This document shows positions 9,499 to 39,802 of a DNA stretch of 64,000 bases, one piece after another; positions within the stretch are counted from its first letter, which is position 1; every line of letters starts with the position of its first letter. The translations under genes and the position numbers were made by a program. The notes beneath the pieces are model-generated. The model did no database searches. It worked only from the letters and a program-made list of their open reading frames with translations, and was not told the DNA's origin. Location of the stretch: contig JBGSUE010000040.1 in the NCBI GenBank assembly GCA_041753515.1, positions 8,290 through 72,289 of the forward strand. Reading direction: 5' to 3'. The stretch comes from Patescibacteria group bacterium. Its GTDB lineage: Bacteria > Patescibacteriota > Microgenomatia > UBA10105 > UBA927.

Positions 9499-9590
9499 AA
9501 TTATGAATTAATAATTACGAATGACGAATTTAATAAGGTAAATATTGCACATATCAATTCATAATTCATAATTCGTAATTCATAATTTCT
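9499..9590. repeat. inverted pair of (AATTCRT)n heptamer arrays flanking a 22-bp spacer, between the acetyltransferase stop and the aminotransferase start
   Basis: Left arm 9499-9533 is in reverse orientation. Right arm 9556-9590 reads aattcat aattcat aattcgt aattcat aatttct and overlaps the last codons (KKL) and the stop of the upstream gene. Confidence 0.7.
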
Positions 9591-10116
9591 TAATCGTTCT
9601 AGCCGGAACTCCTGCAACAACTGTTTTATCAGGAACATTTTTCGTAACAACCGCTCCTGCTCCAACCACCGCGTTTTCACCCACTTTGACTCCGGGCAAG
9701 ATGATTGCACCTGTTCCGGTATACGACCCTTTTTTAAATACAACTCCATCTTCTTTTGTGGGATATGAATCCTGAAGCGGATGGTCCGCATACCCGACGT
9801 TGATATGCGATACGACGCTCGTCCGGTTTGAAAGTGTCACATCGTCCCCAATCTCTATACCGCCCCGCACATCCAGCATAACCTCATCACCTACAAAACA
9901 CCTGTCGCCTATCGTTAAACGCGAAAAACCGTAATGATAAAGATTGGCAAGCGTAATATTGCCGATAATGGTATCGCGTCCGATCCGTGCGCCAAAAAGG
10001 CTCATAAGCAATACCCTGCTTTGGGGCAAAATACATAAATGGAGAATTTTGACTATTACACCATAAAAAACAAACTTAATAGCCTTCGCAAAACCAATGC
10101 TTTGAAGAGCCTTCAT
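9580..10116 (-). CDS. hexapeptide-repeat (LbH) sugar N/O-acetyltransferase (PglD/WbbJ-like)
   Basis: IGDRCFVGDEVMLDV...IGDDVTLSNRTSV...VGENAVVGAGAVV are left-handed beta-helix repeats. Confidence 0.75.
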   Translation of the reverse strand: MKALQSIGFAKAIKFVFYGVIVKILHLCILPQSRVLLMSLFGARIGRDTIIGNITLANLYHYGFSRLTIGDRCFVGDEVMLDVRGGIEIGDDVTLSNRTSVVSHINVGYADHPLQDSYPTKEDGVVFKKGSYTGTGAIILPGVKVGENAVVGAGAVVTKNVPDKTVVAGVPARTIKKL

Positions 10117-10124
10117 ACATACGT

Positions 10125-10250
10125 ATTATATACCCATCTTACTCAGGTTTGCAGCTCCGATGGAGCAAAAAGCTGATTACCTGCCTGCCGGCAGGCAGGG
10201 ATGGGTGGATACTAAAAAACTGCATACATACCTGAGTTTTTTTAGTATAC
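10125..10250. repeat. palindromic intergenic element (termini ACTCAGGT...ACCTGAGT) containing the perfect 20-bp palindrome CCTGCCTGCCGGCAGGCAGG at about 10180-10199
   Basis: Direct reading. The same 20-mer recurs at about 53502-53521. Confidence 0.65.
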
Positions 10251-10257
10251 ATGTTTT

Positions 10258-10289
10258 CAATTCGTAATTCGTAATTCATAATTGTTAAT
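10258..10289. repeat. (AATTCRT)n heptamer array: aattcgt aattcgt aattcat aattgtt
   Basis: Direct reading. Overlaps the stop of the GT2 at 10285. Confidence 0.7.
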
Positions 10290-11037
10290 TTTCTCTTACT
10301 TCACCCTGTTTTGTAATCAACCGGCGCCACAGACCAAAAAGACTTTGCATATAATCAATCGTATCAGGTATCAGATTCACGGTCGAGCGTTTATCGATCC
10401 TGCGCAGGAATAAAACCGGCACTTCCCTGATGCGAAGATTCGCAGCTCTGGCAAACACCATAATCTCCGTATCCCAAAACCAGTGTGCATGCCGGGTTTT
10501 CGTCAGAACCGGCAAGATTTTTTTCCTGTTGAAGAATTTATAACCGCTTTCCGTATCCATTTTATTGGTTCCCACCATCTTGTCTGAAAGATACCGGTAT
10601 CCGACGCTCGCAATTTCGCGGATGATCGAATGGATATTCGTACGGTATACCCGTGTTCCGATCACTACATCTGCGTCATCATTCATGATGATACGGACAA
10701 TCTGTGGGATATAAACAGGCGATACTTCAAGATCGATATCGATATATCCTGCAACTGTTGCGCGCGAAGCCCTGATACCATCCATGACTGTTCTTCCCCG
10801 CCCCATGTTTTTTTTGTGGAAAAGTGCTTTCCAGTTTTTATGGATTTTGAGCTCATGCCTGATAAGTTCAGGAGTGGAATCAGTTGAGGCATCGTCCACA
10901 AATATGATCTGCCACCTGAATCCTACATCGGATAAAACGCTTTCGATCGTCCGGACACTCTGGACAAAATGTCCTTCCTCGTGATATGTGGGAAGAATGA
11001 GGGAAAAATCGAACCGCGTGGACCGTTTTTTCTTCAT
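10285..11037 (-). CDS. GT2 polyprenyl-phosphate sugar synthase (DPM1/ArnC/GtrB-like)
   Basis: FSLILPTYHEE...FVDDASTDST...IDIDLEV...TRVYR. Sits between a GT-C gene and the aminotransferase/acetyltransferase pair, an Arn-like arrangement. Confidence 0.8.
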   Translation of the reverse strand: MKKKRSTRFDFSLILPTYHEEGHFVQSVRTIESVLSDVGFRWQIIFVDDASTDSTPELIRHELKIHKNWKALFHKKNMGRGRTVMDGIRASRATVAGYIDIDLEVSPVYIPQIVRIIMNDDADVVIGTRVYRTNIHSIIREIASVGYRYLSDKMVGTNKMDTESGYKFFNRKKILPVLTKTRHAHWFWDTEIMVFARAANLRIREVPVLFLRRIDKRSTVNLIPDTIDYMQSLFGLWRRLITKQGEVREN

Positions 11038-11096
11038 ATAATAGCTTTCTATGGTACTCTAAAAACCTATAATATGCAATTTCTTTATCATTGCCT

Positions 11097-11178
11097 GTCA
11101 TTCTGAGCCCCCGAGCACTAGAGGCGAAGAATCTCATCATGTCCAATAAATAGATTCTTCACTTCGTTCAGAATGACT
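11097..11178. repeat. inverted-repeat element E1 (type A: TGTCATTCTGAGC...GAAGAATCT / AGATTCTTCACTTCGTTCAGAATGAC)
   Basis: Near-perfect palindrome about 60 bp upstream of the GT2 start at 11037. Confidence 0.7.
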
Positions 11179-12592
11179 ATAATCGTTTCAACAATGTCTC
11201 ATCACCATCGACGGGTTCATAGCGTGCGTAAATATACTGCTGCCATGCCCATGGAAGCGTACTCACCCTTTTCAAACCACTCTGATAAATATACGGGACA
11301 CGATTTTCCTCAAGAATACGGGGCAAATCCGGCAAAGGACGGGAGAGATATCCGGCAAACTGCCCGAACGGGATACAGCAGGCATAATACGCGTCCGGGT
11401 TGTACAGAAATACACCTGTTAGATCCAAAATCTGCTCGTCTTTTGGTACGTCTCTGTAATATTCTTCCACCTGTTTGATAAAATCAGCATTGGTCCAGGC
11501 TTGTTTCGGAATTGTTACCTCATTAAAAACTGATACCAAAAACAACGCGAGAACGGCAAAAAGTGGTAAAAATATTATTTTTGGTATACGGATACTCAGA
11601 TACAAAACAAAATCGGCAGCATACCACGCGATAAACACACCTATCGGGATTAAATACTGGGCATGTTTGAGAGGTGCAAACTGGACAAAAAAGATGATTT
11701 GTGCCCACATCTGAAGGCTGATAAGTACTTCCGATTTCGATTTTGCCGATATCAGGCGATAGACGGAAAAGAGAAGGGCAAGTACCCATATGCTGTGATT
11801 GACAAGTAGCCCCCTGTTCCACCCGTCCACGCCATAATAGATACTGTTGGGATAAAAAAACAGGTCCTGCATCATGATAAACGTCTGACTTATTTTGTTG
11901 GCTTCAACCGGTAACTTGAACAGTGAATAAAATACCAATGGAAAATTTCCAAGCGTTAAAACCCAAATCCCAAATACTGCCATCGGAATCGTCATGCCCA
12001 TTATGAAAGGTTTCAGTTTCCTGCTCAATACTGCCATACCAAATCCTATGGCAATATTAGGCACCATTTTGGGCAAAACCAGATACGACAGAGCATACAA
12101 CGCCCCCGACACCATATGTTTCTTTTTTATCTGAAAATAGATAGCAGCCAATAAAAGAAGTGTTGCCAGGTTATCCGGCCGGATTTCCAGATACTTGTCA
12201 AACGGAAGAGGCAGAAATGCCAGAAGTGCGGCGGCAAGAACAGCTCCCCAGACACTTTTTCTCACCTCCCAAAAAATCATACCGGACATGACACACATCA
12301 TGGCAAATATCCAGAACGTCATGATCCGTGCCGTGATGAAAGGCTGGACTGTTCCCCATCCGGGCACGAGAGCAGAAATCAGGCTTACGGCATATCCGGG
12401 TGGAAAAAACGTGAGGAATTCGATATACGGTTTTTTTCCCTCCATCATTTTTGCAGCCCAGTGGAGGTGCGCAAACTCATCGGCATCAAAATAACGTGTC
12501 AAACCCAAACGGTAATGATACGAGAGAAAGTACAGAAAAAGAAATCCAGTAGCGACGAATAGTATTATCCGGTATATCTGTGTGGATTTCAT
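11177..12592 (-). CDS. GT-C-fold membrane glycosyltransferase, ArnT/PMT-like (start trimmed to MKSTQIYRIILFV)
   Basis: Polytopic protein. First-loop motif RYFDADEFAHLHWAAKM is the DxD/DE motif of GT-C. Paralog of 57056-58714 (RFFDSDEMSHMHWAW). Confidence 0.65.
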   Translation of the reverse strand: MKSTQIYRIILFVATGFLFLYFLSYHYRLGLTRYFDADEFAHLHWAAKMMEGKKPYIEFLTFFPPGYAVSLISALVPGWGTVQPFITARIMTFWIFAMMCVMSGMIFWEVRKSVWGAVLAAALLAFLPLPFDKYLEIRPDNLATLLLLAAIYFQIKKKHMVSGALYALSYLVLPKMVPNIAIGFGMAVLSRKLKPFIMGMTIPMAVFGIWVLTLGNFPLVFYSLFKLPVEANKISQTFIMMQDLFFYPNSIYYGVDGWNRGLLVNHSIWVLALLFSVYRLISAKSKSEVLISLQMWAQIIFFVQFAPLKHAQYLIPIGVFIAWYAADFVLYLSIRIPKIIFLPLFAVLALFLVSVFNEVTIPKQAWTNADFIKQVEEYYRDVPKDEQILDLTGVFLYNPDAYYACCIPFGQFAGYLSRPLPDLPRILEENRVPYIYQSGLKRVSTLPWAWQQYIYARYEPVDGDETLLKRL

Positions 12593-12611
12593 AGATAGAT
12601 GATACCGGAGT

Positions 12612-13064
12612 GTGCTATACTTTTCCAGCTTGTCCAAAGGTCGAACCGTCGACGCCCTTTTACATCCCCCAGAATGGAGAAAAAATGAAAACATCGAGTT
12701 GTTCGTACTGAGAATTGCAGAATGGGCACTCATCGCCCTGTCCGTAACCGGCACACTGCTGGGCGCAGCAACACTGTTCTCGCCCCAATCGGCGCCATGG
12801 GGTCCGATCACTGTCATCACCGGACTCATTCTGAATACGGTATTGGTGATTCATGCATGGCGCGCAAAGAGAGAACCTGTCCGGCAGTTTCATCCGTACC
12901 TATATCTGGTAGCCGTGATCCTCTTTTGCGTATTCGTCGGCTATTGGATTCTCACAGGGCTGATGGGTGAAGCGCTCTTCTCATACATGACGTTAGTATT
13001 GGCGATGGCGCTTCATGTCATCCGGCTGTCCACACCCCGGCTCAGAGCCCACTGGGCAAATTGA
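12612..13064 (+). CDS. small hydrophobic membrane protein, hypothetical
   Basis: 150 aa with 3-4 TM segments and coding-like composition. Overlaps only the doubtful N-extension of the GT-C ORF. Confidence 0.4.
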   Translation: MLYFSSLSKGRTVDALLHPPEWRKNENIELFVLRIAEWALIALSVTGTLLGAATLFSPQSAPWGPITVITGLILNTVLVIHAWRAKREPVRQFHPYLYLVAVILFCVFVGYWILTGLMGEALFSYMTLVLAMALHVIRLSTPRLRAHWAN

Positions 13065-13254
13065 TTAGAAATTGGTGTGATCTGCCCATGCGATGGTTTT
13101 TTCAACAGAAAAAATTGGGGAATAAAATCGTGTGGGTATTTTTCAGGTTTTTTAATAAATGCCTGAAATATTCCCACACGGATTCATCAAAATAAAATCC
13201 CTTCCGTTCAGGCAATAAGCTTGAGAAGAAGGGGTTTTATTTTTATTTCTCTCC

Positions 13255-13279
13255 TCCTCATACATCGATGTATTGGGAG
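13255..13279. promoter_or_regulatory. imperfect copy of the 24-bp palindrome TCCCAATACATCGATGTATTGGGA, upstream of the kinase-like gene pair
   Basis: tcctcatacatcgatgtattgggag. The partner copy lies at about 14941-14965. Confidence 0.5.
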
Positions 13280-13348
13280 TAAATTCAACTGAATGAAGAT
13301 TTAAAGTTTGTCTCCATACTCACAATTACATATAATAGTTTTCAACAT

Positions 13349-14242
13349 ATGCCTGAAATATCACCGCAAACACAACAACTTCTGAAGGAATACACCGGCG
13401 GCATACCCAGGGATTCAAAAATTATCTCCGATAACAGCGCCACAGGTATCATCTCGGTATTGGAATACACATCCGGTAAACTTGCCGTAAAAAAAGCAAA
13501 AGAGCCTGATTTGCCAACCCGGGATGAAAATAGAATACTTGTAAGACGGGAAGCAAAAAATCTCGACGCAATATCCACAACCAAATATGCAAAAAATGTT
13601 CCATACGTTGCCGATGTGAAAGACGATGAAAAAGGCGTGAGTATTGTTATGGAGTATCTGGATGGTTATAAGAATCTGGATGAACAGATCAACTCCTATC
13701 CCCCCCTTGAACAACTGCAGATACTTTCACAAGCCAAACAGATCCTGGATGGTATTCAGGCTGATGCCCACATCACTCACCTTGATTTTAGCTTCGGCAA
13801 TATTATGGTGAAGGGCCTCGGAAAAAACCTGAAATTAAAGATAATTGATTGGGCCCAGGCAGTACCCAATGGTAATAATAAGCAACTCATTCAATCAGAA
13901 CAGTATTTCCTGTCATCAATGAACAAAATTATTCGAGGTGAACCCATACTCAGCGAAAAAATCCGCACCCTCACCACAGACCTGGAGACTATGACCCCTG
14001 AATCAGCAAAAAAGGCTGTCAACAGCTTCCTTGATCAAGCCAGACAACGGTACGCAACATATGCAACTCATGAACAATCCCGAAAGTTCAATCTGGACGT
14101 GATTGACAGCATCAGTATTTACAACAAATTGACACCAAAAGACACAGTGCAGAAGATTCTGGAATCCATTGAGCAAAAAACTGGAGAATATACAACAATT
14201 CCTGTATTTTACGAAAAAGAGCCTATTCCTGGCTGGACATGA
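13349..14242 (+). CDS. atypical protein-kinase-fold protein, Kdo/WaaP (lipopolysaccharide kinase)-like
   Basis: LAVKKAK (beta3 Lys), RREAKNL (alphaC Glu), catalytic ITHLDFSFGNIMV, and IIDWAQA in place of DFG. Confidence 0.5.
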   Translation: MPEISPQTQQLLKEYTGGIPRDSKIISDNSATGIISVLEYTSGKLAVKKAKEPDLPTRDENRILVRREAKNLDAISTTKYAKNVPYVADVKDDEKGVSIVMEYLDGYKNLDEQINSYPPLEQLQILSQAKQILDGIQADAHITHLDFSFGNIMVKGLGKNLKLKIIDWAQAVPNGNNKQLIQSEQYFLSSMNKIIRGEPILSEKIRTLTTDLETMTPESAKKAVNSFLDQARQRYATYATHEQSRKFNLDVIDSISIYNKLTPKDTVQKILESIEQKTGEYTTIPVFYEKEPIPGWT

Positions 14243-14925: not shown

Positions 14926-14940
14926 CACTCTTTCATCTAC

Positions 14941-14965
14941 TCCCAATACATCGATGTATAGGGAG
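14941..14965. promoter_or_regulatory. second copy of the 24-bp palindrome (tcccaatacatcgatgtataggga), downstream of the kinase-like pair
   Basis: Direct reading. With 13255-13279 it brackets the two-gene unit. Confidence 0.5.
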
Positions 14966-15001
14966 TTAATTATCCACTAATCTATAATCTGTACAGAATA
15001 C

Positions 15002-15030: not shown

Positions 15031-15038
15031 CTATTCAT

Positions 15039-15317: not shown

Positions 15318-15785
15318 ATGAAACAGGCGTTTCTCGATTCAAGCGTCCTGTTTACAGCCGTCAACTCCCCAACCGGCGGATCAGCCAAACTGTTTACTCT
15401 CCCAATTCAGCTTGTCACATCAACGTTTGTGTTGACAGAAGTCGAACGAAATGTCCGGGAAAAACTGCTCTCTCATCATCTGGACCGGTATTTCATACTT
15501 GTTAAACAAATGAAGATCGTGGAGGGTAAATCGGATACTAAACTGATTGAAAAAGCCAAAAAAGTCATTGTCGAAAAAGACTCACTTGTTCTTGCAGATG
15601 CCAAACTGTCACATGCTGAGTATCTGATCACTCTGGATCTCAAGTACTTCTTCACTCCACAAGCCCAAAAATTTCTCAAACCCACCCTCATCCTCACCCC
15701 AAAATGCTCATTGAAAAAATTTCCTGACTGTTTTAACGACCGTTTCGGTTTCGGAGTCAGTCAGTTCAGGAAACAGCGGCAGTGA
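15318..15785 (+). CDS. vapC: PIN-domain toxin (VapC-like)
   Basis: Acidic residues at FLDSSVL, TEVE, ADAK and ITLD. Follows the antitoxin by 6 bp. Confidence 0.7.
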   Translation: MKQAFLDSSVLFTAVNSPTGGSAKLFTLPIQLVTSTFVLTEVERNVREKLLSHHLDRYFILVKQMKIVEGKSDTKLIEKAKKVIVEKDSLVLADAKLSHAEYLITLDLKYFFTPQAQKFLKPTLILTPKCSLKKFPDCFNDRFGFGVSQFRKQRQ

Positions 15786-16814
15786 TAAAACTTCCCTGCT
15801 CTGTGCTTCAGACTCGGGGAAGTCGCCTTTTTTGTAGCCTAAATATGCAAATGCTTTCGTCAGGTGGACCGGGACGGGATAATGGACGGCACAGCCAACA
15901 CCATGATCCAAAAGATGTTTCATGAGCTTATCTCGTTTCTTTGTGCGTACAACATAAAGATGATGACTGGATTTGGAGGAAGGTGAAAGGTGAAAGGTAA
16001 AAGGTGAAAGGTCTCCGATATTTGATAATTCCCGGTCATAAAACGAAGCAATTTCCTTCCGTCGTCTATTCCATGCATCCAGATGCCGGAGCTTGATGGA
16101 AAGAATTGCCGCCTGCAGTTCATCCAACCGTGAGACGCCTGATACAACTTCACTTTGGTATCGTGCTTTCTCCCCGTACTGCCGCAGCATTTTTACGCGG
16201 CCGGCTAATGAGGATGAATCCGTCACGATCATTCCCCCGTCCCCCATGGCTCCCAGATTTTTTGACGGATAAAAACTGAAAATTGCCGCGTCTCCCAGTG
16301 TCCCAACTTTTTTCCCCTCAATCACTGCTCCATGCGCCTGTGCGGCATCCTCTAGTAGATATATCTTTCTTTTCGCATTATTGAGTATATTTTGTAGACC
16401 GATAATATCTGCCGGATTGCCATACAGGTGTACCGGAATCACGGCTTTTGTCTTTTCCGTCACACGCTTCGCCAGATCATCGGCAGACATGTTTCCGTCC
16501 GGTCCGCAATCTGCCAACCGTATTGCAGCACCGGAAAGAGCTACCCCAAACGCATTGGGGTATGCATTGGCAGGGATGACAACCTCATCACCAGGCATAA
16601 GTCCGAACGCTTTCAGTACCAACGTGAGGGCATCCGTCCCGCTGGCCACCCCTATTGCATGATAGCTGCCCAGATAATCGGCAAACTCATCTTCAAACAT
16701 TTTCACTCGTGGCCCCAATGTAAAGTACCCATTCTCCATGACCGTATGGACTGCGGATTTCAACTCTGTTTCGATACTTTTATACTGTCTGGTTAATTCA
16801 AATATTGGAATCAT
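15708..16814 (-). CDS. DegT/DnrJ/EryC1/StrS-family sugar aminotransferase (second copy)
   Basis: 368 aa. LLEDAAQAHG...FSFYPSKNLGAMGDGG. Contains a repeat-encoded insert SPFTFHLSPSS. Confidence 0.85.
   Translation of the reverse strand: MIPIFELTRQYKSIETELKSAVHTVMENGYFTLGPRVKMFEDEFADYLGSYHAIGVASGTDALTLVLKAFGLMPGDEVVIPANAYPNAFGVALSGAAIRLADCGPDGNMSADDLAKRVTEKTKAVIPVHLYGNPADIIGLQNILNNAKRKIYLLEDAAQAHGAVIEGKKVGTLGDAAIFSFYPSKNLGAMGDGGMIVTDSSSLAGRVKMLRQYGEKARYQSEVVSGVSRLDELQAAILSIKLRHLDAWNRRRKEIASFYDRELSNIGDLSPFTFHLSPSSKSSHHLYVVRTKKRDKLMKHLLDHGVGCAVHYPVPVHLTKAFAYLGYKKGDFPESEAQSREVLSLPLFPELTDSETETVVKTVRKFFQ
15974..16008. repeat. heptanucleotide tandem array (GGTGAAA)n: ggaggaa ggtgaaa ggtgaaa ggtaaaa ggtgaaa, inside the aminotransferase CDS
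   Basis: Direct reading. Minus strand reads TTTCACC units, the same unit that ends the leuS array. Confidence 0.7.
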
Positions 16815-16821: not shown

Positions 16822-16883
16822 TGTCATTCTGAACAAAGTGAAGAATCTATTCACTAGATCCTTCGCTCACGCTCAGGATGACA
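16822..16883. repeat. inverted-repeat element E2 (TGTCATTCTGAACAAAGTGAAGAATCT ... AGATCCTTCGCTCACGCTCAGGATGACA)
   Basis: 8 bp upstream of the aminotransferase start at 16814. Overlaps the 3' end of the GT2 pseudogene. Confidence 0.7.
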
Positions 16884-17619: not shown

Positions 17620-17704
17620 TGTCATTCTGATCCGCCAGTTGGCGGAGAAGAATCTAGTTTAAAAAATTAGATCCTTCACTCGCCTTCGGCGGTTCAGGAT
17701 GACA
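17620..17704. repeat. inverted-repeat element E3, 2 bp upstream of the ATG at 17707 and 34 bp upstream of the divergent start at 17586
   Basis: tgtcattctgatccgccagttggcggagaagaatct ... agatccttcactcgccttcggcggttcaggatgaca. Both inner arms are palindromic. Confidence 0.7.
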
Positions 17705-20654: not shown

Positions 20655-21773
20655 TCAGATAGTGAGAAGATTTTCCTGAATAATTTTTTCTGCCCAGGAT
20701 TGAGCTGTCATATCCAACCCTTTTTCCGTAAAATGAAATTCATCTACGTGAATCGTATAATCATCATGCGGCAGGAGAGACTGCAGATCAAGATAATTAA
20801 TCCCTTGAGCGGCATAATCCTCCCGTACTAACCGATCAAATTCCAATACCATATCATGCGGTTTCGTCCAATGCGGTATGCTTGCGGCAAACGCACACCA
20901 GTACTCACGGCACACCCCCCTCATGAGCCGGATATTGCGCAGGTACAATGGAAGACCGCGGGACACAACCTTATCCGTAACGGTTGGTGACTGCTGCCAT
21001 ACCTGATCCGGCAAGTACCCTGCCAGATGAAACGTCCGGTCGATTGCCGACGATGTAAATGTCAGAAAATACGACCGGAACGCCCAGTCTGGTAGTGATA
21101 AGGCAAGTGACCGGATGCGTGGATCAAACGGACGCACGTAATTGGAATAGTCCGGCAGGATATTGCCCGTATACATGGAAAACCAGAGATCGTTGACCCC
21201 GTCGTAACTTATGACCAGATCCGGATGAAACTGGATGCCATACATCTCAAGGATGCCGAGAGACGTCTGCGCAATACCGGCATCGAGAGCAAGATTAATC
21301 ACCTCGACTGAATACCCGCTGTTTTTGTAGTATTCGTTCAATTTTTTCTCCAAAAGTGCCGGCCAGGTTGTATCATTGGTCGGTCCGTCCCAGGTTGTGG
21401 AACCGCCCAGTGTCACGATCCGCTTTACGTTTGCCTGTTTTTCATATGGCCTCTCGGGAGTACGGAATCCCAGACTGTTGTTCGTATACGTATACGTTAC
21501 CGTTTTCCCAATAGCCTTTTTATAGACTGTGAGTATTCGTGAATCGAATGGCACAGTCATGAACGGCAGGAACGGATGATCCGTAAACCGCCTGCGGTCT
21601 GCCATCGCCCGCTCTCCCGTCAAAAACGACGGCAGATAGGAATTCATGTCAATCTGCTTCACTTTCACATATATCCGTGATGCAATTTCACCGATCACAA
21701 ACGTCAGAACTGGAAGATAAATCAATACGAATACTAGTCTGAAAACAAAACGCTTGATTCTGAATTTATTCAT
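20655..21773 (-). CDS. membrane-anchored SGNH/GDSL-family hydrolase (candidate polysaccharide O-acetylesterase or acyltransferase)
   Basis: N-terminal TM helix. Block I TLGGSTTWDG, block III DGVNDL, block V DEFHFT. Confidence 0.6.
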   Translation of the reverse strand: MNKFRIKRFVFRLVFVLIYLPVLTFVIGEIASRIYVKVKQIDMNSYLPSFLTGERAMADRRRFTDHPFLPFMTVPFDSRILTVYKKAIGKTVTYTYTNNSLGFRTPERPYEKQANVKRIVTLGGSTTWDGPTNDTTWPALLEKKLNEYYKNSGYSVEVINLALDAGIAQTSLGILEMYGIQFHPDLVISYDGVNDLWFSMYTGNILPDYSNYVRPFDPRIRSLALSLPDWAFRSYFLTFTSSAIDRTFHLAGYLPDQVWQQSPTVTDKVVSRGLPLYLRNIRLMRGVCREYWCAFAASIPHWTKPHDMVLEFDRLVREDYAAQGINYLDLQSLLPHDDYTIHVDEFHFTEKGLDMTAQSWAEKIIQENLLTI

Positions 21774-21804
21774 GAAATTTCCATTTCAGTATATGCATGC
21801 GACA

Positions 21805-21839
21805 AATTCATAATTCGTAATTCATAATTTGTAATTGAA
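21805..21839. repeat. (AATTCRT)n heptamer array: aattcat aattcgt aattcat aatttgt aattgaa
   Basis: Lies between the epimerase stop and the SGNH start at 21773. Confidence 0.7.
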
Positions 21840-21843: not shown

Positions 21844-22824
21844 TTACCAGTAATGGTGCTTGTTTTTTCGGTAGAACGCAACTGTTTTTTTGAGACCATC
21901 AGCCAGACTGGTTTTAGGTTTCCATCCGGTCAGTTTCCTGATCTTTGTTATATCGCTGGCAAAGTCCCCGGGCTCCATGGCACGCCTCTCGGGCGAAAAC
22001 GGCGCAAATTCCCAACTGCCCCTTCCTGCCGCCTGGATGATCATTTTCACCAGGTGCAGAAACGTATCCGGCGTGTCATCACCAATATTAATAATTTCAC
22101 CATAACAGGTATCTGTTGATGCAGTGCGCAGAATGGCATCCACCGCATCATCCACATACAAAAAATCACGTTTCAGCTTCCCGTCGCCAAATACACGGAT
22201 CACCCCACCGTCCATCGCAAGACGGATAAACCAGTTCACGACACCGTACCTGTCGTGCTTCATCTGACTTCGGGGGCCATACACGTTGGTAAGCCTGAGC
22301 ATCACGGATTTTATTCCATGAACATCGTTATAGACTTTTACTATCTTTTCTGCAGTCAGATTGGTAATTTCATATATCCCGCGGGGATTTGTGGGGGCAT
22401 CTTCACTCACTGGAAGTTTCACTGCGTGACCGTATTGACCACGGGTGCCGGTATAGATGAGTTTGGCACCGGGCGCAACGTAACGCATCGCCTCAAGTAA
22501 AATGGCAGTCCCGCGGATATTGATATCAATATCCGGGTAAGGATTGGTCATGGAAAGGATATGGTCTGTCTGGCGGGCTAGATGGAATACAAAATCCTTG
22601 CCGCGCACGAGCTTTTTAACAGCCGCCTCATCCCTGATATCCGAAAAATCCATCTCAACCTCATCTTTGACTGGATGAAGATTGAACAAATTCCCGCCCT
22701 GGTGCGGGGTGAGATTATCCTGTATTGTCACGTGAGCACCCTGTTTCACAAGGGCAATAGCCAGATTTGATCCGATAAACCCCGCTCCACCGGTTATTAG
22801 TGCTTTTTTGTTTTTACATGTCAT
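21844..22824 (-). CDS. NAD-dependent epimerase/dehydratase (extended SDR)
   Basis: ALITGGAGFIGSN is a Rossmann motif. YEITNLTAEK is YxxxK. Confidence 0.85.
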   Translation of the reverse strand: MTCKNKKALITGGAGFIGSNLAIALVKQGAHVTIQDNLTPHQGGNLFNLHPVKDEVEMDFSDIRDEAAVKKLVRGKDFVFHLARQTDHILSMTNPYPDIDINIRGTAILLEAMRYVAPGAKLIYTGTRGQYGHAVKLPVSEDAPTNPRGIYEITNLTAEKIVKVYNDVHGIKSVMLRLTNVYGPRSQMKHDRYGVVNWFIRLAMDGGVIRVFGDGKLKRDFLYVDDAVDAILRTASTDTCYGEIINIGDDTPDTFLHLVKMIIQAAGRGSWEFAPFSPERRAMEPGDFASDITKIRKLTGWKPKTSLADGLKKTVAFYRKNKHHYW

Positions 22825-27716: not shown

Positions 27717-29363
27717 ATGGTCATGAAAAAATATTTTGAACCCGTCTTTGTCGCCCTCTTCATCATCTTCATGACGGCGGTCAACCTGTGGCACGTGATC
27801 TACCACGCACAATCACGGCCGCCAAATACGGTATATGTGGGCATCTCCCACCACTACGAAGACTACTTCTACTACCTCTCCCAACTCACCCAGGGAGCGC
27901 AAAAATCGTGGGAAGTGAAAAATCTCTACACATCCGAACCCATCCCGGCGACTCCTCTCTGGTGGGTAAATATTATACTCGGAAAAGTGTCAGCACTCCT
28001 ACATGTCCCTGTATTTACCGTATATACAGCATCGCTTTTTGCCGCGACGCCACTACTTTTGGCAACGCTGTACCTGGGCTCGCGTATGCTTTTTCCAAAA
28101 AATACTAACCTTCGTCTGGGGACTCTCCTCATAACTGTTCTTGCAACAGCAGGTTATAGATATATTGACGGTCGGATTGATCCAATTGTGTATTTCTATA
28201 ACTATACGAGCTCTCTCAACAGGCTTGGCGGTGTCACGCATCTCATGCTCCAAAACATCCTGTCTCTTCTGATCATTCTTTATGGCTCCGCGATCATTGA
28301 ATCCGACAAAAAAATAAGTAGAAATACCCTTATTGTGAGCATAAGCGCATTCCTTCTGGCTTTCATCAACCCCGTATATGTTGTCCTTGATGCTGTGGCA
28401 ATCTCGCTTGTTGCGCTAACCCGTATTCGCAGAAAACTTCTCACGAGTGCCCTTATTATCGGCATTCCACTGCTGATTCCATATATCCTCATGCAACGCA
28501 CATTTGATATCCCCTTCTACCAGTATTTCCGCTGGTGGGAGTCATCGGTCCTTCGCGCCCCCACATACAACTTTTGGCACTCGTACGGCATCCTCATCTA
28601 TCTTCTCCCTTTGGGGGTTATCCCATTTTTAAAAAAAGGCGGGGCTCTGCGGTGGACCGGACTTGTCTGGGCAGTTCTCCCAGTCATCATGTATTGGTCC
28701 CCCATCCCCGGCATTCTCCACATCCCGGTCTTCCGTCTCACCCAGCCGCCACAGTACCTAATCCTCGGGGCCATTGCAGCGGAGGGCTTATGGATCCTTT
28801 GTCATCCCGAACTTGTTTCGGGATCCCGTTTCATTAACTGGATGCTGAAACGAGTTCAGCATGACGGGAAAAAAATATACAATCATAATAATTCTAAAAT
28901 AATTCTATTTTGGTTATTAACTACTCTATTTCTCATTAATCAATACCCGATGCTCTACGAGGAAGTGCGGGCGCGGCGCGACAACTACACCCTTATCTCA
29001 TGGCTCAACCATATGGATAAAAACCTGTACGAAGGACTTATGACTTTTTCTACCATGCCGCATAATCAGATAGCTCTTGCATTCAACAATCTGGAACTCA
29101 TCGTGCCGGCAATTTCGGGACACACAGTTTACCAGGCCCACCGGTCGCTGACCCTTGAGTATCCGCGCAAAATCGGTGAGGCAGCAACATTTTTCACTAT
29201 GCAGCTTACCCCGTCCGATGCGCTGTCATTTCTTAAAACCAACACCATCGGCTACATCCTCTGGAGAAAATCAGACGGCGACAGACGCGAATTTGAGGCA
29301 TACTATCCATTCCTCACTAAAACCTATGAAAATTCTACTCTCATCATCTATACTGTGCAGTAA
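27717..29363 (+). CDS. GT-C-like paralog family member 3
   Basis: PPNTVYVGISHHYEDYFYYLSQLTQGAQKSWEVKNLYTSEP. C-terminus YYPFLTKTYENSTLIIYTVQ. Confidence 0.55.
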   Translation: MVMKKYFEPVFVALFIIFMTAVNLWHVIYHAQSRPPNTVYVGISHHYEDYFYYLSQLTQGAQKSWEVKNLYTSEPIPATPLWWVNIILGKVSALLHVPVFTVYTASLFAATPLLLATLYLGSRMLFPKNTNLRLGTLLITVLATAGYRYIDGRIDPIVYFYNYTSSLNRLGGVTHLMLQNILSLLIILYGSAIIESDKKISRNTLIVSISAFLLAFINPVYVVLDAVAISLVALTRIRRKLLTSALIIGIPLLIPYILMQRTFDIPFYQYFRWWESSVLRAPTYNFWHSYGILIYLLPLGVIPFLKKGGALRWTGLVWAVLPVIMYWSPIPGILHIPVFRLTQPPQYLILGAIAAEGLWILCHPELVSGSRFINWMLKRVQHDGKKIYNHNNSKIILFWLLTTLFLINQYPMLYEEVRARRDNYTLISWLNHMDKNLYEGLMTFSTMPHNQIALAFNNLELIVPAISGHTVYQAHRSLTLEYPRKIGEAATFFTMQLTPSDALSFLKTNTIGYILWRKSDGDRREFEAYYPFLTKTYENSTLIIYTVQ

Positions 29364-30580: not shown

Positions 30581-30680
30581 ATGTCATCGCGAGCCAAGCT
30601 CAGCTTGGCGTGGCGATCTAAATCGGAATTCAAATCATCCCCACGGGATTGCTTCTCCGTGGGAACGGTATCGCAATGAC
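30581..30680. repeat. inverted-repeat element E8 (type B: TGTCATCGCGAG...GGCGTGGCGATC...GGGATTGCTTC...TCGCAATGACA)
   Basis: Contains the internal palindromes gccaagctcagcttggc and cccacggg...ccgtggg. Confidence 0.7.
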
Positions 30681-35325: not shown

Positions 35326-35334
35326 GAATATAAA

Positions 35335-36288
35335 TTACAAGGATTTCACCCAATCGATGAGGGATGAGAGGCCGGAGGATACACTCACTCTCGGCTCCCA
35401 GGCGAGAAGCTTATTGGCTTTTGAAATATCAGACACGTAGTATGGCTGGTCGCCGGGGCGAACCTTGTCATAAGTTACAGGGATTTTATACCCCAACAGT
35501 TTCTCAAGTTGTGCCAGAATTTGGATGAGATTGACTGCATTTTTCTCTCCCCCGCCAACGTTAAAAATCTGGCCGGAAACCGTCTTTTTGTCGTGAATAG
35601 CCAGATCGTATAATCGGCATAAATCTTCAATATTGAGTAAATCCCGTATCTGATATCCGTCCCCGTAAATGGTAATCGTTTTTTTGGCGATGGCACGGCG
35701 GACAAAGTGCGCGACCCAGCCCTGATCCTCATTCCCGTACTGGTGAACGCCATATATGCAGGATTTCCGGAAAACCACGGTCGGAATTCCAAAAATCCGA
35801 TGGTAATCATGCATGTAGCAGTCGGCTCCACCTTTACTGCAGGCGTAGGGCGAATAGAAATCCAGTGGCTGAGATTCAGAAACAGGTTTATAGTTATTCG
35901 CAAGATCTCCATACACTTTATTTGTGGATGCATAGGTCACCAATGGTCTATTTCCGGATTTTCGTATTTCCTCAAGAAGCGTAAACGTACCGCGCAGGTT
36001 CACCTCAAAATCCGTTTCAGGATCCTCAACGGAGCTTGTGACAGCTACCTGGGCTGCCAAGTGAAGAATTGCATCCTGATTCTTTACCAGACCGGAAAGT
36101 TTTTTTCCGTCCGTAATATCTCCCTTTACGAATCGGATGCTCTTCCCCTCTTTATTAAGCCAGTCGATATTTTTCTCGGAGCCTTTACGCGACAGACTGT
36201 CGTAGACGACTACATTGTTTTTTTTTGAAAAATAATACGCAAGATTGGAACCGATAAATCCGGCACCTCCGGTGATTAAAATGTTCAT
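35335..36288 (-). CDS. NAD-dependent epimerase/dehydratase
   Basis: MNILITGGAGFIGSNL. YACSK is YxxxK. Confidence 0.85.
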   Translation of the reverse strand: MNILITGGAGFIGSNLAYYFSKKNNVVVYDSLSRKGSEKNIDWLNKEGKSIRFVKGDITDGKKLSGLVKNQDAILHLAAQVAVTSSVEDPETDFEVNLRGTFTLLEEIRKSGNRPLVTYASTNKVYGDLANNYKPVSESQPLDFYSPYACSKGGADCYMHDYHRIFGIPTVVFRKSCIYGVHQYGNEDQGWVAHFVRRAIAKKTITIYGDGYQIRDLLNIEDLCRLYDLAIHDKKTVSGQIFNVGGGEKNAVNLIQILAQLEKLLGYKIPVTYDKVRPGDQPYYVSDISKANKLLAWEPRVSVSSGLSSLIDWVKSL

Positions 36289-36326
36289 AAATTATGAATT
36301 ATTAATGATGAATTACGAATGAAGAT
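36289..36326. repeat. heptamer (AATTCRT-type) array directly upstream of the epimerase start at 36288, in reverse orientation on the plus strand
   Basis: ttcataaattatgaattattaatgatgaattacgaatgaag. Confidence 0.6.
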
Positions 36327-36339
36327 ACTTTATCGCAAA

Positions 36340-36368
36340 TTGATTTCATTAGCAAGCTTTGCTACAGT
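36340..36368 (+). promoter_or_regulatory. promoter TTGATT-N17-TACAGT, 6 nt upstream of the ATG at 36375 (leaderless-type)
   Basis: Direct reading of 36340-36374. Confidence 0.45.
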
Positions 36369-36374
36369 TGGTTC

Positions 36375-38018
36375 ATGAAATCCACATATATTGCACGAGC
36401 GTTTCTTCTCACCATTTTTCTGTTTATCATTCACCTCTTTATCATCAATGATTATTCAATCAACTGGGATTTCCACCATGTCTTTTTTGCAGGTCTCTAC
36501 CACACCGGGCATCCTGTCACACGGGATCTCTGGTATGGCCTACCGTTTAACGATCCGGACCCCATGCGGATGGTGGAAACTCCATTCGGTCCGCTCCAAT
36601 CTGCTATTCCGGTATTATCGTATACGACGTTTTTCGAAAAACTGAAACTATTGCCGTTTGACAGCGCGTTTAATCTTCCTGCAGTTCTGGCCGGTTCTGC
36701 CGGAGTTTTTATTCTGTTTCTCTTTCTTCTGGAAACATTCAACCCCGCAACTGCCTGGGCAGGATTTTTATTCCTGGCATTGTATCCCAGGTTTTGGGGA
36801 GATCTTCATACAAACGTTAAGGATATCCCGACTGCCGTTCTGTATACCCTCTCAATCTATCTTGCCTGGCGGGCAGTCAACCGGAGGATTTGGCCGGATA
36901 TCATTGCCGCAGGCATTGCCACAGGCATAACTTTTAATCTCAAAGTAAACGCCATATTCATACCGATCATTATTGCCGTTTGGATCTTGTGGCTTCTTGC
37001 AACACCTGCCAAAAAACACCTGACAAAACCATTCGGGAATGTGTGGGACAACATCATTACTCCCTTCGGTTGTTATGCCATTATTGCAGCCTTGTCCGCT
37101 TTCGGCATTTGGTCTTTGTTCTGGCACAACCCCTATGACCATCTGGCATATCTGATCCGTTTTTTCCAGTACAACACAACGAATATGGAAGTAATTTTAA
37201 ACGGCTTCTGGTACTGCAGCGGTGTCAATATTCCCTGGTATTACCCCTTCTGGTATCTTGCCATCGTCACGCCGTTGCCTACCCTCATATTTGCAGTCAT
37301 AGGTTTTATGCGTCTTTTCTATCTTGCGCTCATTAAAAAACACCCATTATCTTCGCTCATCATCTTTTGGTTTTTTATCCCGCTTATCAGGTTTATGGTT
37401 CCAAATGCCTCCGTTATCGACGGCATCAGGCATTTTGAGGAAGTCATCTTTCCTTGGCTTGCAGCCGCCGCCATCGGTGCAGCATTTCTTTACAATACAT
37501 TTCTTTCAAAGAAATTATCCGTTCTCCGTCTACCGTCTGCCGTCATTCTATCTGTCTATCTTCTATCATCTATTCTCTCCTATCACCCCTACCAGCTCTC
37601 CTATTTCAATGAACTGGTCGGCGGACTTCCCGGAGCAGTCGGAAAATATGACGTCGATTACTGGGGAATATCGCAGAAAAAAGCCGTAGAATGGCTGAAC
37701 GTAAATGCCAAACCCAACGCAAGCATTCACATTATCATGTCTGCAGACGTGGCCGGAAAATATCTCCGGCCTGATCTTCTGGCAAACCTCAATAAAACGG
37801 ATTACGACAGTGCCGATTACGTGGTCGTCCTAAACCGACAATCCTTCTTTTACCGGTTTTTCTACTCGTGGGAATACTTTTTGAGACGGAAAACCGTATA
37901 TGAAGTGAAAGTGAAAGGCGTACCGCTCACCAGCATTTATCAAAATTCACTGGGAAAATTTGAAAGAAGACCTAATTGGTGGCAGGGAGAAGATCCTTGC
38001 ATGAGAAAATACTGGTAA
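36375..38018 (+). CDS. GT-C-fold membrane glycosyltransferase-like protein (PMT/ArnT-like)
   Basis: 547 aa, polytopic, with a C-terminal soluble domain. Confidence 0.5.
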   Translation: MKSTYIARAFLLTIFLFIIHLFIINDYSINWDFHHVFFAGLYHTGHPVTRDLWYGLPFNDPDPMRMVETPFGPLQSAIPVLSYTTFFEKLKLLPFDSAFNLPAVLAGSAGVFILFLFLLETFNPATAWAGFLFLALYPRFWGDLHTNVKDIPTAVLYTLSIYLAWRAVNRRIWPDIIAAGIATGITFNLKVNAIFIPIIIAVWILWLLATPAKKHLTKPFGNVWDNIITPFGCYAIIAALSAFGIWSLFWHNPYDHLAYLIRFFQYNTTNMEVILNGFWYCSGVNIPWYYPFWYLAIVTPLPTLIFAVIGFMRLFYLALIKKHPLSSLIIFWFFIPLIRFMVPNASVIDGIRHFEEVIFPWLAAAAIGAAFLYNTFLSKKLSVLRLPSAVILSVYLLSSILSYHPYQLSYFNELVGGLPGAVGKYDVDYWGISQKKAVEWLNVNAKPNASIHIIMSADVAGKYLRPDLLANLNKTDYDSADYVVVLNRQSFFYRFFYSWEYFLRRKTVYEVKVKGVPLTSIYQNSLGKFERRPNWWQGEDPCMRKYW

Positions 38019-38019
38019 A

Positions 38020-38904
38020 CTACATCGATGAAATAATTCTGCGCACGATATTACCCGCAGTTAGACCGTGATATTTAAGGAGATTTTCGTAGGATGCACT
38101 TATTGGAGTAAAAATATCTTTCAATCCAAACTTTAATAATTTCATAGTCTTATTATTTTCGAGGATATACTCTCCCACTGCGCTCCCGAATCCTCCGGTC
38201 ACGCGGTGCTCTTCAATCGTTGCCGCTATTTTATAAGTCCTGCATATTTCTTTGAGACGTTTTTTATCCAGCGGGGAAATGATAGGAAACCTGAAAATAT
38301 TGGACCGGATACCAATTTTAAACAGTTTTTTCTGTACCTCATCCGCGAGCCATAATTTTGTTCCAGTTACAAGAAAAGCCATGTCTGTATTCTGCAAAGT
38401 CTGACTTTGCAGAACCTGACGGAGAGGATTCGCCTCGATTCTCAAATACGCAGGCGTACTTGTTTTGGCAAGTGATGCAGTAATTTTTTCGGTTTGTTGT
38501 TGATCGTGCGGGGAAACAATACCCATACCCGGAAGCATCCGCATGAGGGCGATATCTTCCATCGAGTGATGCGTAGGACCGGCTTTATTGTACGCAAGTC
38601 CTGCCCCAATCCCCACAATCTTAACGTTCAGGTTCTGCATGACAATATCGGTGCGGATTTGTTCATAGCACCTCATAGATGCAAACGTGGCAATTGAATA
38701 GATAAACGGTTTCCAACCCGCTGCTGCAAGTCCGGCGGCTACGGTCACCAGGTTTGCCTCGGCAACCCCTATGTTGATAAACCGGTCCGGAAATTTTTCG
38801 GTAAACGGCTCCAGAAACCGGTATCCCAAATCTCCGGTTATGAGCATGATTTTACTATCACGCTCTGCTGCTTTGATAAGTCCCCTGATAAACGCTGCTC
38901 TCAT
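38020..38904 (-). CDS. transketolase, C-terminal (pyrimidine-binding) subunit
   Basis: LITGDLGYRF...NIGVAEANLVTVAAGLA...GPTHHSMEDIALMR. Confidence 0.8.
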   Translation of the reverse strand: MRAAFIRGLIKAAERDSKIMLITGDLGYRFLEPFTEKFPDRFINIGVAEANLVTVAAGLAAAGWKPFIYSIATFASMRCYEQIRTDIVMQNLNVKIVGIGAGLAYNKAGPTHHSMEDIALMRMLPGMGIVSPHDQQQTEKITASLAKTSTPAYLRIEANPLRQVLQSQTLQNTDMAFLVTGTKLWLADEVQKKLFKIGIRSNIFRFPIISPLDKKRLKEICRTYKIAATIEEHRVTGGFGSAVGEYILENNKTMKLLKFGLKDIFTPISASYENLLKYHGLTAGNIVRRIISSM

Positions 38905-38921
38905 AATATTTTGTCATGCTG

Positions 38922-38973
38922 AGTGAAACGAAGCATCTCTTCACGAGATTCTTCACTACGTTCAGAATGACTC
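38922..38973. repeat. inverted-repeat element E4 (short variant), 18 bp upstream of the start at 38904
   Basis: tgtcatgctgagtgaaacgaagcatctcttcacgagattcttcactacgttcagaatgact. Confidence 0.6.
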
Positions 38974-38993
38974 AGTATATCCTTTTATCAGCT

Positions 38994-39767
38994 CTATCCT
39001 TGCCTCTTTATATTCAGATTCATTAAATACCTTATAGTGTCCGATGAGCTGGTTTTCAATAATTGATATGCCGTGTCCGAAACCGTGTTGGCAATAATAA
39101 CGCTAGGTGCGTCTTTTTCAAACGGTATACGATGATATGTTTTATTAATCTCTTCAATATTGTGTCCATCAATTGTATGCACGGAAAATCCGAATGACTG
39201 CCATTTTTTTGCAAATGGTTCCAGAGGCGTAATCTCAGACGATGCGCCAAAGCACTGCCATTTGTTGTAATCCACGATGACGGTCAGATTGTCCAATTTC
39301 ATGCGTGATGCAAAAATAGCGGCTTCCCACACACTCCCCTCCCCGCATTCCCCATCGCTGATTAAGACAAAAACGTGCGGAGGTTTTTTATTAATTTTTT
39401 TATATCCCAGTGCTATACCAGAAGCAAATGCCAAGCCATGTCCGAGACTCCCTGATGTCATTTCAATACCGGGATCTTTCATTTCAGGATGCTCGCACAA
39501 TCCACCGGTATCAGCTCCGAACGAATCAATGAGTTTTTTTCCCATGATTTTTTTGTGATACAGCACAGAGTAGAGCGCTGCTGCCGCATGGCCTTTGGAC
39601 AGGATAAACCGGTCTTTTTTCACATCCAGTCTTCCGGCATACAAAACTGCCACAAGATCGGATATCGATAATGCCGATCCGATGTGCCCTGTATGGGCAT
39701 GATAAGAAATATCAAGAGAAGTCAACGCAACCTCATGACAAAATTTCTGTATATTTTTTTTCATCAT
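38994..39767 (-). CDS. transketolase, N-terminal (TPP-binding) subunit; 3' end likely frameshifted at a T-run near 39085-39090
   Basis: SKGHAAAALY...GSLGHGL...ISDGECGEGSVWEA. After ...VIIANTV the conserved ending FGHGISIIENQLIGHYK... continues in the -1 frame. Confidence 0.75.
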   Translation of the reverse strand: MMKKNIQKFCHEVALTSLDISYHAHTGHIGSALSISDLVAVLYAGRLDVKKDRFILSKGHAAAALYSVLYHKKIMGKKLIDSFGADTGGLCEHPEMKDPGIEMTSGSLGHGLAFASGIALGYKKINKKPPHVFVLISDGECGEGSVWEAAIFASRMKLDNLTVIVDYNKWQCFGASSEITPLEPFAKKWQSFGFSVHTIDGHNIEEINKTYHRIPFEKDAPSVIIANTVSDTAYQLLKTSSSDTIRYLMNLNIKRQG

Positions 39768-39802
39768 AATTCGTAATTCCTAATTCATAATTCGTAATTC
39801 TT
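39768..39802. repeat. (AATTCRT)n heptamer array: aattcgt aattcct aattcat aattcgt aattctt
   Basis: Abuts the tktN start and overlaps the last codons (ELRIMN) and the stop of the epimerase. Confidence 0.7.

Follow-up and report, generated by a model that had tools for sequence, protein, structure and literature searches.

AATTCRT heptanucleotide arrays at gene boundaries of a Patescibacteria-type genome match known heptamer microsatellites

Short tandemly repeated repetitive (STRR) sequences with units of seven nucleotides are reportedly present in heterocystous cyanobacteria, in which Mazel and colleagues are said to have described, in 1990, the units CCCCA(A/G)T, TT(G/T)GTCA and CAACAGT (STRR1-3). 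Here, we analyzed arrays of the heptamer AATTCRT at gene boundaries in a 64,000-nucleotide stretch of DNA from a Patescibacteria group bacterium (assembly GCA_041753515.1, contig JBGSUE010000040.1, positions 8,290 to 72,289; hereafter the window). As in STRR sequences, the repeats are tandem, intergenic heptamers, and AATTCGT arrays are indeed found in genomes of Nostoc, Calothrix, Anabaena, Rivularia and Microcystis; the unit differs, however, and the host of the window is not a cyanobacterium. An earlier interpretation made from the letters of the window (the sequence-only reading) had called the arrays STRR-like, and our analysis agrees with this assignment. STRR sequences are also mentioned for Calothrix PCC 7601 (PMC4692102).

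Heptamers are the most over-represented unit length of simple sequence repeats in many prokaryotes; as PMC4679880 and PMC4692102 cite the work of Mrazek (2007), such repeats are mostly non-coding and are ascribed to polymerase slippage. The long simple sequence repeats (LSSRs), head-to-tail repeats with units of 5–11 nt, are presented there as a statistical class without a defined unit or function; the window, which has an excess at period 7 only, resembles them in this over-representation. Genomes of the candidate phyla radiation (CPR) lie outside the genome sets as these two papers describe them.

TAACTGA arrays (MacGregor, 2015) were found in marine Beggiatoaceae, Cyanobacteria and five Bacteroidetes; they have 2–6 units, are almost all intergenic, and often lie 1–43 nt before start codons without a Shine-Dalgarno (SD) site, in the stop-bearing orientation, with some in reverse past stop codons (PMC4679880). 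These arrays differ between strains by 7-nt indels, and binding by S1, Csp or CsrA was proposed (PMC4679880). The G-rich heptamers GGGAATC/GGGGAYT of Xanthomonas and Nostoc (Rehm et al., 2015) are ∼90% intergenic, lie near the end of the upstream open reading frame (ORF) on either strand, form inverted pairs capable of hairpin formation, and vary between close relatives (PMC4692102). Intergenic heptamer arrays abutting starts and stops have been published for both units, and the statement that such repeats were not known in this gene context is not supported. Deletion of heptamer arrays in Nostoc had modest effects on a reporter (preprint, 10.1101/2022.06.06.494920). At one locus, the Vibrio cholerae ctxAB promoter, the copy number of TTTTGAT heptads, which are bound by known regulators, affects expression (10.1101/2021.05.14.444153). 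These heptads, like the arrays studied here, are A/T-rich and lie upstream of genes, but the window arrays are scattered and of both orientations, and in many cases a gene lies upstream of them. Phase-variable AGAT repeats are present in 6–23 copies in the 5′ untranslated region of Moraxella uspA2, and the tracts studied, as cited in PMC4679880, are long and perfect. Such contingency loci resemble the window in having tandem repeats near surface-structure genes, where slippage is possible, whereas the window tracts are short and imperfect and have no frame or spacing logic.

Tandem Repeats Finder reported period-7 arrays at positions 9556–9587, 10259–10283, 21805–21836, 36290–36320 and 39767–39800 of the window. 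Direct reading of the sequence bore out all of them and revealed an inverted partner at 9496–9530. Arrays are present at every place named by the sequence-only reading; there are six AATTCRT arrays at five gene boundaries, each of ∼5 units (35 bp) including degenerate edge units. The two-unit pattern AATTCRTAATTCRT (up to one mismatch) matched 16 times, compared with 0.35 ± 0.59 expected (100 shuffles, none of which reached 16). A stringent tandem-array detector (minimum of 3.5 units and 85% identity) found seven arrays of period 7 in the window and 0–1 at each of the other periods between 5 and 12, and none in 30 Markov simulations. The AATTCRT arrays of the window, all six, lie in spacers or overlap gene ends only; variant units (CAT, CGT or other) interrupt every one of them, and the longest run of identical adjacent units is two. 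The arrays are real and non-random, and they show the two marks of heptanucleotide LSSRs, a tandem excess over composition and a mostly non-coding location.

Read forward, AATTCRT arrays have a stop in every frame, as do those of TAACTGA; in reverse they can be translated (the ELRIMN tail described below), and the spread of both units across phyla is patchy. Written as TAATTCA/TAATTCG, the unit differs from TAACTGA at two to three of seven positions, the host is of Patescibacteria type, and the spread of AATTCRT, which covers more than 10 phyla and viral contigs among the matches listed, is broader than that published for TAACTGA. Two of the six arrays (9496–9530 and 36287–36321) occupy a TAACTGA-like position, forward and a few nucleotides before a start codon without an SD site, whereas the other four are reversed and lie just past stops. 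GGGAATC/GGGGAYT heptamers are G-rich and quadruplex-forming; AATTCRT arrays, in contrast, are A/T-rich and unstructured unless they form an inverted pair, and a TTTGGGA array related to the G-rich units is present in the window at 8181–8211. Neither AATTCGT nor AATTCAT is mentioned in PMC4679880, and array strings of these units retrieved no paper with a bacterial context from the literature searched, in which two irrelevant eukaryotic papers matched. We conclude that AATTCRT is a new unit in a new host lineage within the known class of heptamer repeats.

In all respects tested (an excess at period 7, an intergenic location, mixed orientations, a geometric decay of lengths, turnover between relatives and no preference for a gene function), the arrays match known heptamer microsatellites. 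We consider it probable, with some reserve, that they are lineage-specific heptanucleotide microsatellites in a Patescibacteria-type genome, with incidental coding and coupling effects. The class of the repeats, their non-randomness, their restriction to intergenic DNA, their lack of conservation, the absence of gene-function specificity and their consequences for coding are demonstrated here. The arrays would arise by insertion and slipped-strand expansion and may have a neutral or merely permissive role, persisting at gene boundaries alone because they are tolerated nowhere else. Read as AATTCRT, every unit contains TAA, and three units therefore stop all three frames; the reverse reading, ACGAATT, is open, and ATGAATT units add an overlapping ATG and TGA (AUGA). 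Since it is stop-rich one way and open the other way, an array can end or lengthen the upstream gene, or precede a start codon, and leave both genes intact. Ribosomes may be able to cross the inserted spacer by terminating and re-initiating at sense-oriented AUGA mini-ORFs, and such re-initiation would explain how insertions could be harmless in a genome of SD-less, ATGA-overlapping genes. The incidental effects consist of supplied stop codons, a 6-residue C-terminal tail, AUGA-overlapping MNYEL mini-ORFs and one 40-bp hairpin.

Pfam annotation identified the genes that adjoin the arrays as those of sugar-nucleotide and glycan enzymes. The claim that every array sits between a stop and the next start holds for four junctions of minus-strand genes, where the spacers measure 84, 168, 70 and 12 nt, but not for the array at 36.3 kb, which lies between divergent start codons. 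In gene sense, arrays 1R, 2, 3 and 5 (AYGAAUU) lie at or just past the upstream stop, and arrays 1L and 4 (AAUUCRU) run up to the ATG of the gene downstream. At junction 1, between the genes of a hexapeptide acetyltransferase (9580–10116, minus) and a DegT aminotransferase (8347–9495, minus), array 1L (9496–9530, unit on the minus strand; AATTCGT CATTCGT AATTATT AATTCAT AATTGAT) abuts the DegT ATG (9493–9495). Its partner, array 1R (9556–9590, plus; AATTCAT AATTCAT AATTCGT AATTCAT AATTTCT; AUGAAUU/ACGAAUU in gene sense), contains the TGA stop of the acetyltransferase gene (9580–9582), which overlaps an ATG (ATGA). The two arrays form an inverted pair (9496–9590, with 25 nt between them) that fills the entire 84-nt gene spacer. 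As gene-sense RNA, the pair is predicted to form an A/U-rich hairpin of ∼40 bp with imperfect pairing (−26.1 kcal/mol, z = −3.96; none of 200 shuffles was as stable), whereas single arrays are unstructured as RNA (z ∼0). An Rfam search with the pair returned a chance-level miRNA-like hairpin match alone (E = 0.55), Rfam 15 gave no match at gathering thresholds in the whole window, and the window scans found no known RNA family, tRNA, rRNA or terminator.

Array 2 (10259–10293, plus; AATTCGT AATTCGT AATTCAT AATTGTT AATTTTC) holds in its degenerate edge the TAA stop (10285–10287) of a GT2 glycosyltransferase gene (10285–11037, minus). The 168-nt spacer in which it lies also contains an A/T hairpin, the GC palindrome CCTGCCTGCCGGCAGGCAGG (10181–10200) and, 8 nt from the ATG that follows, a TATAAT box. 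Array 3 (21805–21839, plus; AATTCAT AATTCGT AATTCAT AATTTGT AATTGAA) starts 4 nt past the TAA stop of an epimerase gene (21844–22824, minus) and ends 31 nt before the ATG of a GDSL protein gene (20655–21773, minus). Array 4 (36287–36321, unit on the minus strand; CATTCGT AATTCAT CATTAAT AATTCAT AATTTAT) overlaps by 2 nt the ATG (36286–36288) of a second epimerase gene (35335–36288, minus); it lies 53 nt upstream of a PMT_2 glycosyltransferase gene (36375–38018, plus) divergent from this epimerase gene, and is in reverse orientation relative to it. Array 5 (39768–39802, plus; AATTCGT AATTCCT AATTCAT AATTCGT AATTCTT) encodes, in gene sense, the final six residues and the stop of a third epimerase (39780–40730, minus; …ELRIMN, TAG at 39780–39782), and abuts the ATG (39765–39767) of the N-terminal subunit (38994–39767) of a split transketolase, the other part of which is at 38020–38904. 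A variant unit of this array yields AGGA 10 nt before the transketolase ATG. The ELRIMN ending that had been attributed to several arrays is confined to this epimerase, and two other genes take a stop codon alone from their arrays.

Repeated mini-ORFs, which the sequence-only reading had also proposed, are present in the sequence at junctions 1 and 3. Alternation of ATGAATT and ACGAATT in gene sense generates AUG AAU UAC GAA UUA UGA (MNYEL*), in which the UGA overlaps the next AUG. At junction 3 (21770–21825, minus), MNYEL* occupies 21808–21825 and its TGA overlaps the ATG of MNLSHAYTEMEIS* (21770–21811), whose own TGA overlaps the GDSL start codon (21771–21773). At junction 1, the TGA of the upstream gene overlaps the ATG of the first mini-ORF in a like chain (9566–9583, then 9501–9569), which ends 5 nt before the DegT ATG. 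These mini-ORFs are predictions from the nucleotide sequence. Upstream of the 49 predicted genes of the window, SD sites are nearly always absent, and a TANNNT (−10-like) box peaks 5–7 nt before the ATG (17 of 49 genes vs. 5–9 at control offsets). No SD site is present at the genes adjoining the arrays except for the weak AGGA at 38994–39767, and ATGA overlaps are common between neighboring window genes. The TANNNT box at 5–7 nt, together with the lack of SD sites, suggests that the mRNAs of the host may be mostly leaderless or near-leaderless.

A scan for (AATTCRT)3, with one genome per Genome Taxonomy Database (GTDB) species, returned at least 120 loci, and a three-unit scan of IMG/VR likewise returned at least 120; by our own arithmetic, ∼2–38 matches would be expected by chance in the whole GTDB-species collection. 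The matches listed come from more than 10 phyla, one archaeal metagenome-assembled genome (MAG) and many viral contigs. Among them are Bacteroidota, Cyanobacteria (Nostoc, Calothrix, Anabaena, Rivularia, Microcystis, Planktothrix), Ignavibacteria, Calditrichia, Lentisphaerae, Kiritimatiellia, Acidobacteria, Chloroflexi, Planctomycetes, Spirochaetes, Firmicutes, Desulfobacterales and an alphaproteobacterium. The counts that follow refer to the 120 genome loci listed. Perfect arrays of at least three units numbered 191 at period 7, vs. 18, 7 and 5 at periods 4, 6 and 8, and the AATTCRT arrays often have other heptamer units as neighbors. Of 136 arrays, 130 lie outside ORFs of at least 100 aa (∼95% intergenic). 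The arrays occur in all four orientations relative to their neighbors and cluster within ∼15 nt of starts and stops, with 19 of 42 forward arrays located 0–17 nt before a start codon. Perfect cores of 3, 4 and 5 units (81, 35 and 7, respectively) decay in a roughly geometric manner, as slippage would give. We rejected a preferred length of five units: the apparent mode results from a search that needs at least three perfect units and from partial edge units, whereas the perfect cores decay geometrically.

The genes flanking these loci are diverse. In 150 flanking ORFs sampled, 194 Pfam families were present, and the commonest, GFO_IDH_MocA, appeared only five times; the flanks include housekeeping genes, e.g., those of tRNA synthetases and GTPases. 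The proposed tie of the arrays to glycosylation operons was not sustained, with no enrichment of glycosyltransferases, epimerases or DegT in these ORFs. A glycosylation-specific element was likewise discarded, since the 25 most frequent Pfam families include no epimerase, glycosyltransferase or DegT family. We have no evidence that the arrays control glycosylation.

In the collection searched, which holds no close relative of the window genome, the closest non-self proteins showed 78% and 68% amino-acid identity. Among named homologues, the best matches to two window enzymes are from Candidatus Gottesmanbacteria and ‘Patescibacteria group bacterium’ (58–73% identity), and the host genome is probably of CPR/Microgenomates type and Gottesmanbacteria-like. 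The Logan contig L378, from a relative, has a large part of its genes in common with the window (epimerase, both transketolase subunits, APH, PMT_2, epimerase, GT2 and DegT), and no AATTCRT array was found in it or in 886 kb of DegT-homologue loci; a conserved regulatory element was rejected on these grounds. The junction-5 proteins of the window and L378 are 51–57% identical, and the junction-3 epimerases 76%. In L378, the epimerase ends in …WYRERQ* and its gene meets the transketolase gene through an ATGA stop/start overlap (…AGACAATGAAAAA) without an array. The window has the same bases, AGACAA|TGAAAAA, with ∼37 nt of array at the position of the bar, and its epimerase gains ELRIMN. With flanks shared between the window and the array-free contig, the junction-5 array looks like a lineage-specific insertion. 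At junction 3, TGGTAA is present in both genomes, and the next bases of L378, TGTCG, come after the 39-nt array in the window; this array may also be an insertion, although the flank match of only 5 bases (p ∼0.01 by rough estimate) is no more than suggestive.

Three Logan contigs of SRR28170473 (L001, L420 and L421), which represent the only other assembly found, match the window at 100% identity over 11.2 kb, arrays 1–3 included, with array 3 identical in L001; because they probably come from the same sample as the MAG, this identity is uninformative on polymorphism. One Logan unitig has its end within array 1R. No match was obtained in exact-protein look-ups for three genes that adjoin arrays.

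Several observations weigh against an account in terms of microsatellites alone. Slippage by itself leaves unexplained the recurrence of the exact AATTCRT unit across phyla and phages, and independent slippage events do not readily explain its presence in more than 10 phyla, an archaeal MAG and viral contigs. There is no obvious proto-repeat seed in L378 at junction 5. Some viral contigs (L195, L171, L179 and L166) carry arrays at nearly every gene junction, even at 54–64% GC; the segment 3646–9117 of L195 has 11 arrays in 5.5 kb at 54% GC, and divergent inverted pairs like that at 9496–9590 of the window are present in these array-dense loci. Such a density looks functional or mobile. At co-directional junctions (genome loci L002–L121 and viral loci L122–L241), CAT-type arrays are 48 forward and 20 reverse and CGT-type arrays 17 and 31 (Fisher p = 3e-4), a bias that comes from non-independent viral contigs. 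The preferred forms, AAUUCAU for the CAT type and ACGAAUU for the CGT type in sense, both avoid AUG on the transcript, and this orientation bias hints at transcript-level selection. In four-unit scans of IMG/VR, AATTCGT gave 20 stretches, TAACTGA 32 and one scrambled control 7; these counts are only suggestive that AATTCRT is special among heptamers. It is conceivable, if rather improbable, that AATTCRT and a few ‘cosmopolitan’ heptamers (TAACTGA, GGGATTT) are footprints of one unrecognised process that is common to many phyla and phages and active in this CPR genome. The process could be an insertion mechanism that places ready-made arrays or hairpins at gene boundaries and in-frame loops, or a conserved nucleic-acid-binding factor that selects the unit.

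The arrays might act on the mRNA as post-transcriptional cis-elements, either by binding ribosomes or an RNA-binding protein (S1, Csp-like) or as a frame-independent AUGA termination-reinitiation relay that couples cistrons. The absence of SD sites and the TANNNT box 5–7 nt before the ATG, which together imply that internal cistrons must depend on coupling, speak for such a role, as do the mini-ORF chains that link stops to starts at junctions 1 and 3 (via MNLSHAYTEMEIS* at the latter), the forward arrays 0–17 nt before starts elsewhere (19 of 42), as for TAACTGA (PMC4679880), and the orientation bias that depends on unit type. However, every orientation occurs, gene 3′ ends are equally frequent, the arrays are not kept in L378, and in AT-rich spacers chance alone would place stops 0–22 nt from a start. 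Sense ATG-bearing (CAT-type reverse) arrays are also a minority elsewhere (20 of 68), and an AUGA relay was rejected as a general rule for this reason; a post-transcriptional role is, in our view, unlikely. The translational coupling suggested by the sequence-only reading belongs here; it suits a genome without SD sites but not the orientations observed in other genomes. The clean insertion of the junction-5 array relative to L378, and more weakly that at junction 3, would also be expected if the arrays, especially the inverted pairs, were small non-autonomous palindromic elements, comparable to miniature inverted-repeat transposable elements or Rickettsia palindromic elements (RPEs), or insertion scars, spread within and between genomes, by phages among other means, with gene boundaries or in-frame permissive protein loops as landing sites. 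Pairs in inverted orientation, (ACGAATT)n-loop-(AATTCGT)n, exist in the window and in L002, L022, L025, L085 and L195, a DegT homologue (P0205) has an inverted ACGAAT/ATTCGT repeat, in-frame, in a hot-spot loop where many homologues carry insertions, and the unit is spread across phyla and viruses. Yet no target-site duplications were seen, the six window copies share no internal or flanking sequence, the spacer length varies among inverted pairs, and core lengths are geometric. Within the window, the inverted pair is at junction 1, and the other four junctions have single arrays. Pfam annotation placed no transposase, reverse transcriptase or similar gene beside the window arrays (the ORFs of the dense viral loci were not family-scanned), and a flank identity of 5–13 nt is weak evidence between genomes so diverged. 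Taken together, a mobile element appears decidedly unlikely.

A phase-variation switch, in which slippage changes the unit number and thereby toggles the spacing, coupling or promoter strength of surface-glycan genes, had been suggested by the sequence-only reading. Tandem repeats beside glycosylation genes are a typical contingency-locus target, TAACTGA arrays vary by 7-nt indels among Cyanothece strains (PMC4679880), and the unitig end inside array 1R may denote heterogeneity, or merely a repeated k-mer. With no more than two identical units adjacent and every array interrupted, however, the tracts are short and imperfect, not the long perfect ones of contingency loci, and for this reason we disfavor the switch. 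A gain or loss of 7 nt in a spacer shifts no gene's reading frame, the same arrays elsewhere flank housekeeping genes such as those of tRNA synthetases and GTPases, and comparison with the SRR28170473 contigs revealed no polymorphism, though these are probably from the same sample. Phase variation through the arrays is thus unsupported, and we regard it as very improbable. A DNA-level signal has a slim chance at best: forward arrays of AATTCAT would resemble a sigma-70 promoter (TTCATA-17 nt-CATAAT) and start sense or antisense transcription, or phased AATT tracts would bind a nucleoid-associated protein, in the manner of the TTTTGAT heptads of the V. cholerae ctxAB promoter. A promoter scan did find TTCATA/17/CATAAT-type matches, with a score of 9 of 12, in arrays 1R, 2, 3 and 1L, the forward arrays 1L and 4 point into the adjoining start codons, and there are Bacteroidota loci with arrays just upstream of TAnnTTTG boxes. 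The promoter-like matches, however, are not above those in shuffles (4 vs. 2.9 ± 1.8; 1 vs. 0.9), which counts against promoter mimicry. At arrays 4 and 1L, just 2–4 nt separate CATAAT from the ATG, too few for transcription to start before the ATG. In CGT units the hexamer is CGTAAT, without the A2 that a −10 box requires, and transcription from four of the six arrays would be antisense.

The arrays matter in practice for annotation: they alter gene ends (stops, a 6-residue tail), part formerly overlapping genes, and may break short-read assemblies. The arrays, a palindromic family and in-frame heptamers in enzymes mean that reduced CPR genomes are not repeat-poor. The finding that, among the matches listed, more than 10 phyla as well as viral contigs have arrays of one exact heptamer would be important only if a shared mechanism or binding factor came to light.

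The palindromic family, a 59–98 bp element, is far more abundant in the window than the heptamer arrays. At least 10 copies are present in spacers, many of which end 8–17 nt before a start codon (11097–11177, 16823–16882, 17621–17703, 28801–28865, 30583–30680, 38913–38971, 47649–47730, 49903–49976, 51742–51820, 53456–53548 and one near 61066). The common form is GTCATYCTGA…GAAGRATCT…AGATYCTTC…TCAGRATGAC, with a variant GTCATCGCGAG…GGCGTGGCGATC…TCGCAATGAC. Comparison of the element with Rfam assigned it to no family and gave chance-level hairpin matches only. The GC palindrome of the array-2 spacer, which is perfect, occurs a second time at 53500–53521, inside a GTCAT…ATGAC element, and related CCTGCC…GGCAGG hairpins are in-frame in DegT homologues of other metagenomes (L302, L334).

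Other heptamers in the window are in-frame. The TTTGGGA array at 8181–8211 (3.7 units) lies in a GT2 gene (7330–8346) and encodes KFQIPNPKSQ past the DDGS motif, and AAGGTGA (4.7 units, 15975–16012) lies in a DegT gene (15708–16814) and encodes LSPFTFHLSPS before the HLY motif. Two homologues (L298 and L374) have different heptamer arrays in the same DegT loop as AAGGTGA. Many DegT homologues carry unrelated in-frame insertions of 10–45 residues at one hot spot past an EDAA(Q/H)xIG motif (L300, L302, L303, L333, L334, L336, L352, L362, L364 and L422 at 10001–11233; proteins P0127, P0128, P0158, P0193 and P0205). These insertions are made of heptamer arrays (AATTTCC, AAAGTCA, AATACGA) or GC hairpins, and that of P0205 is the inverted ACGAAT/ATTCGT repeat. 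RPEs are in-frame selfish insertions. By analogy, the DegT hot-spot insertions would resemble in-frame palindromic insertions of the RPE kind, and the in-frame heptamer arrays and hairpins in permissive loops of DegT and GT2 genes are similar to RPEs in this sense, although they have no sequence relationship to them. A CCTTTTT array (3.7 units) is present at the window edge (10–45). Three tandem genes with prepilin-type N-terminal methylation motifs and one gene with a RIO-type kinase domain (3775–5372 and 13349–14242) fit a CPR-type genome, and several PMT_2-type transferases are encoded in the window.

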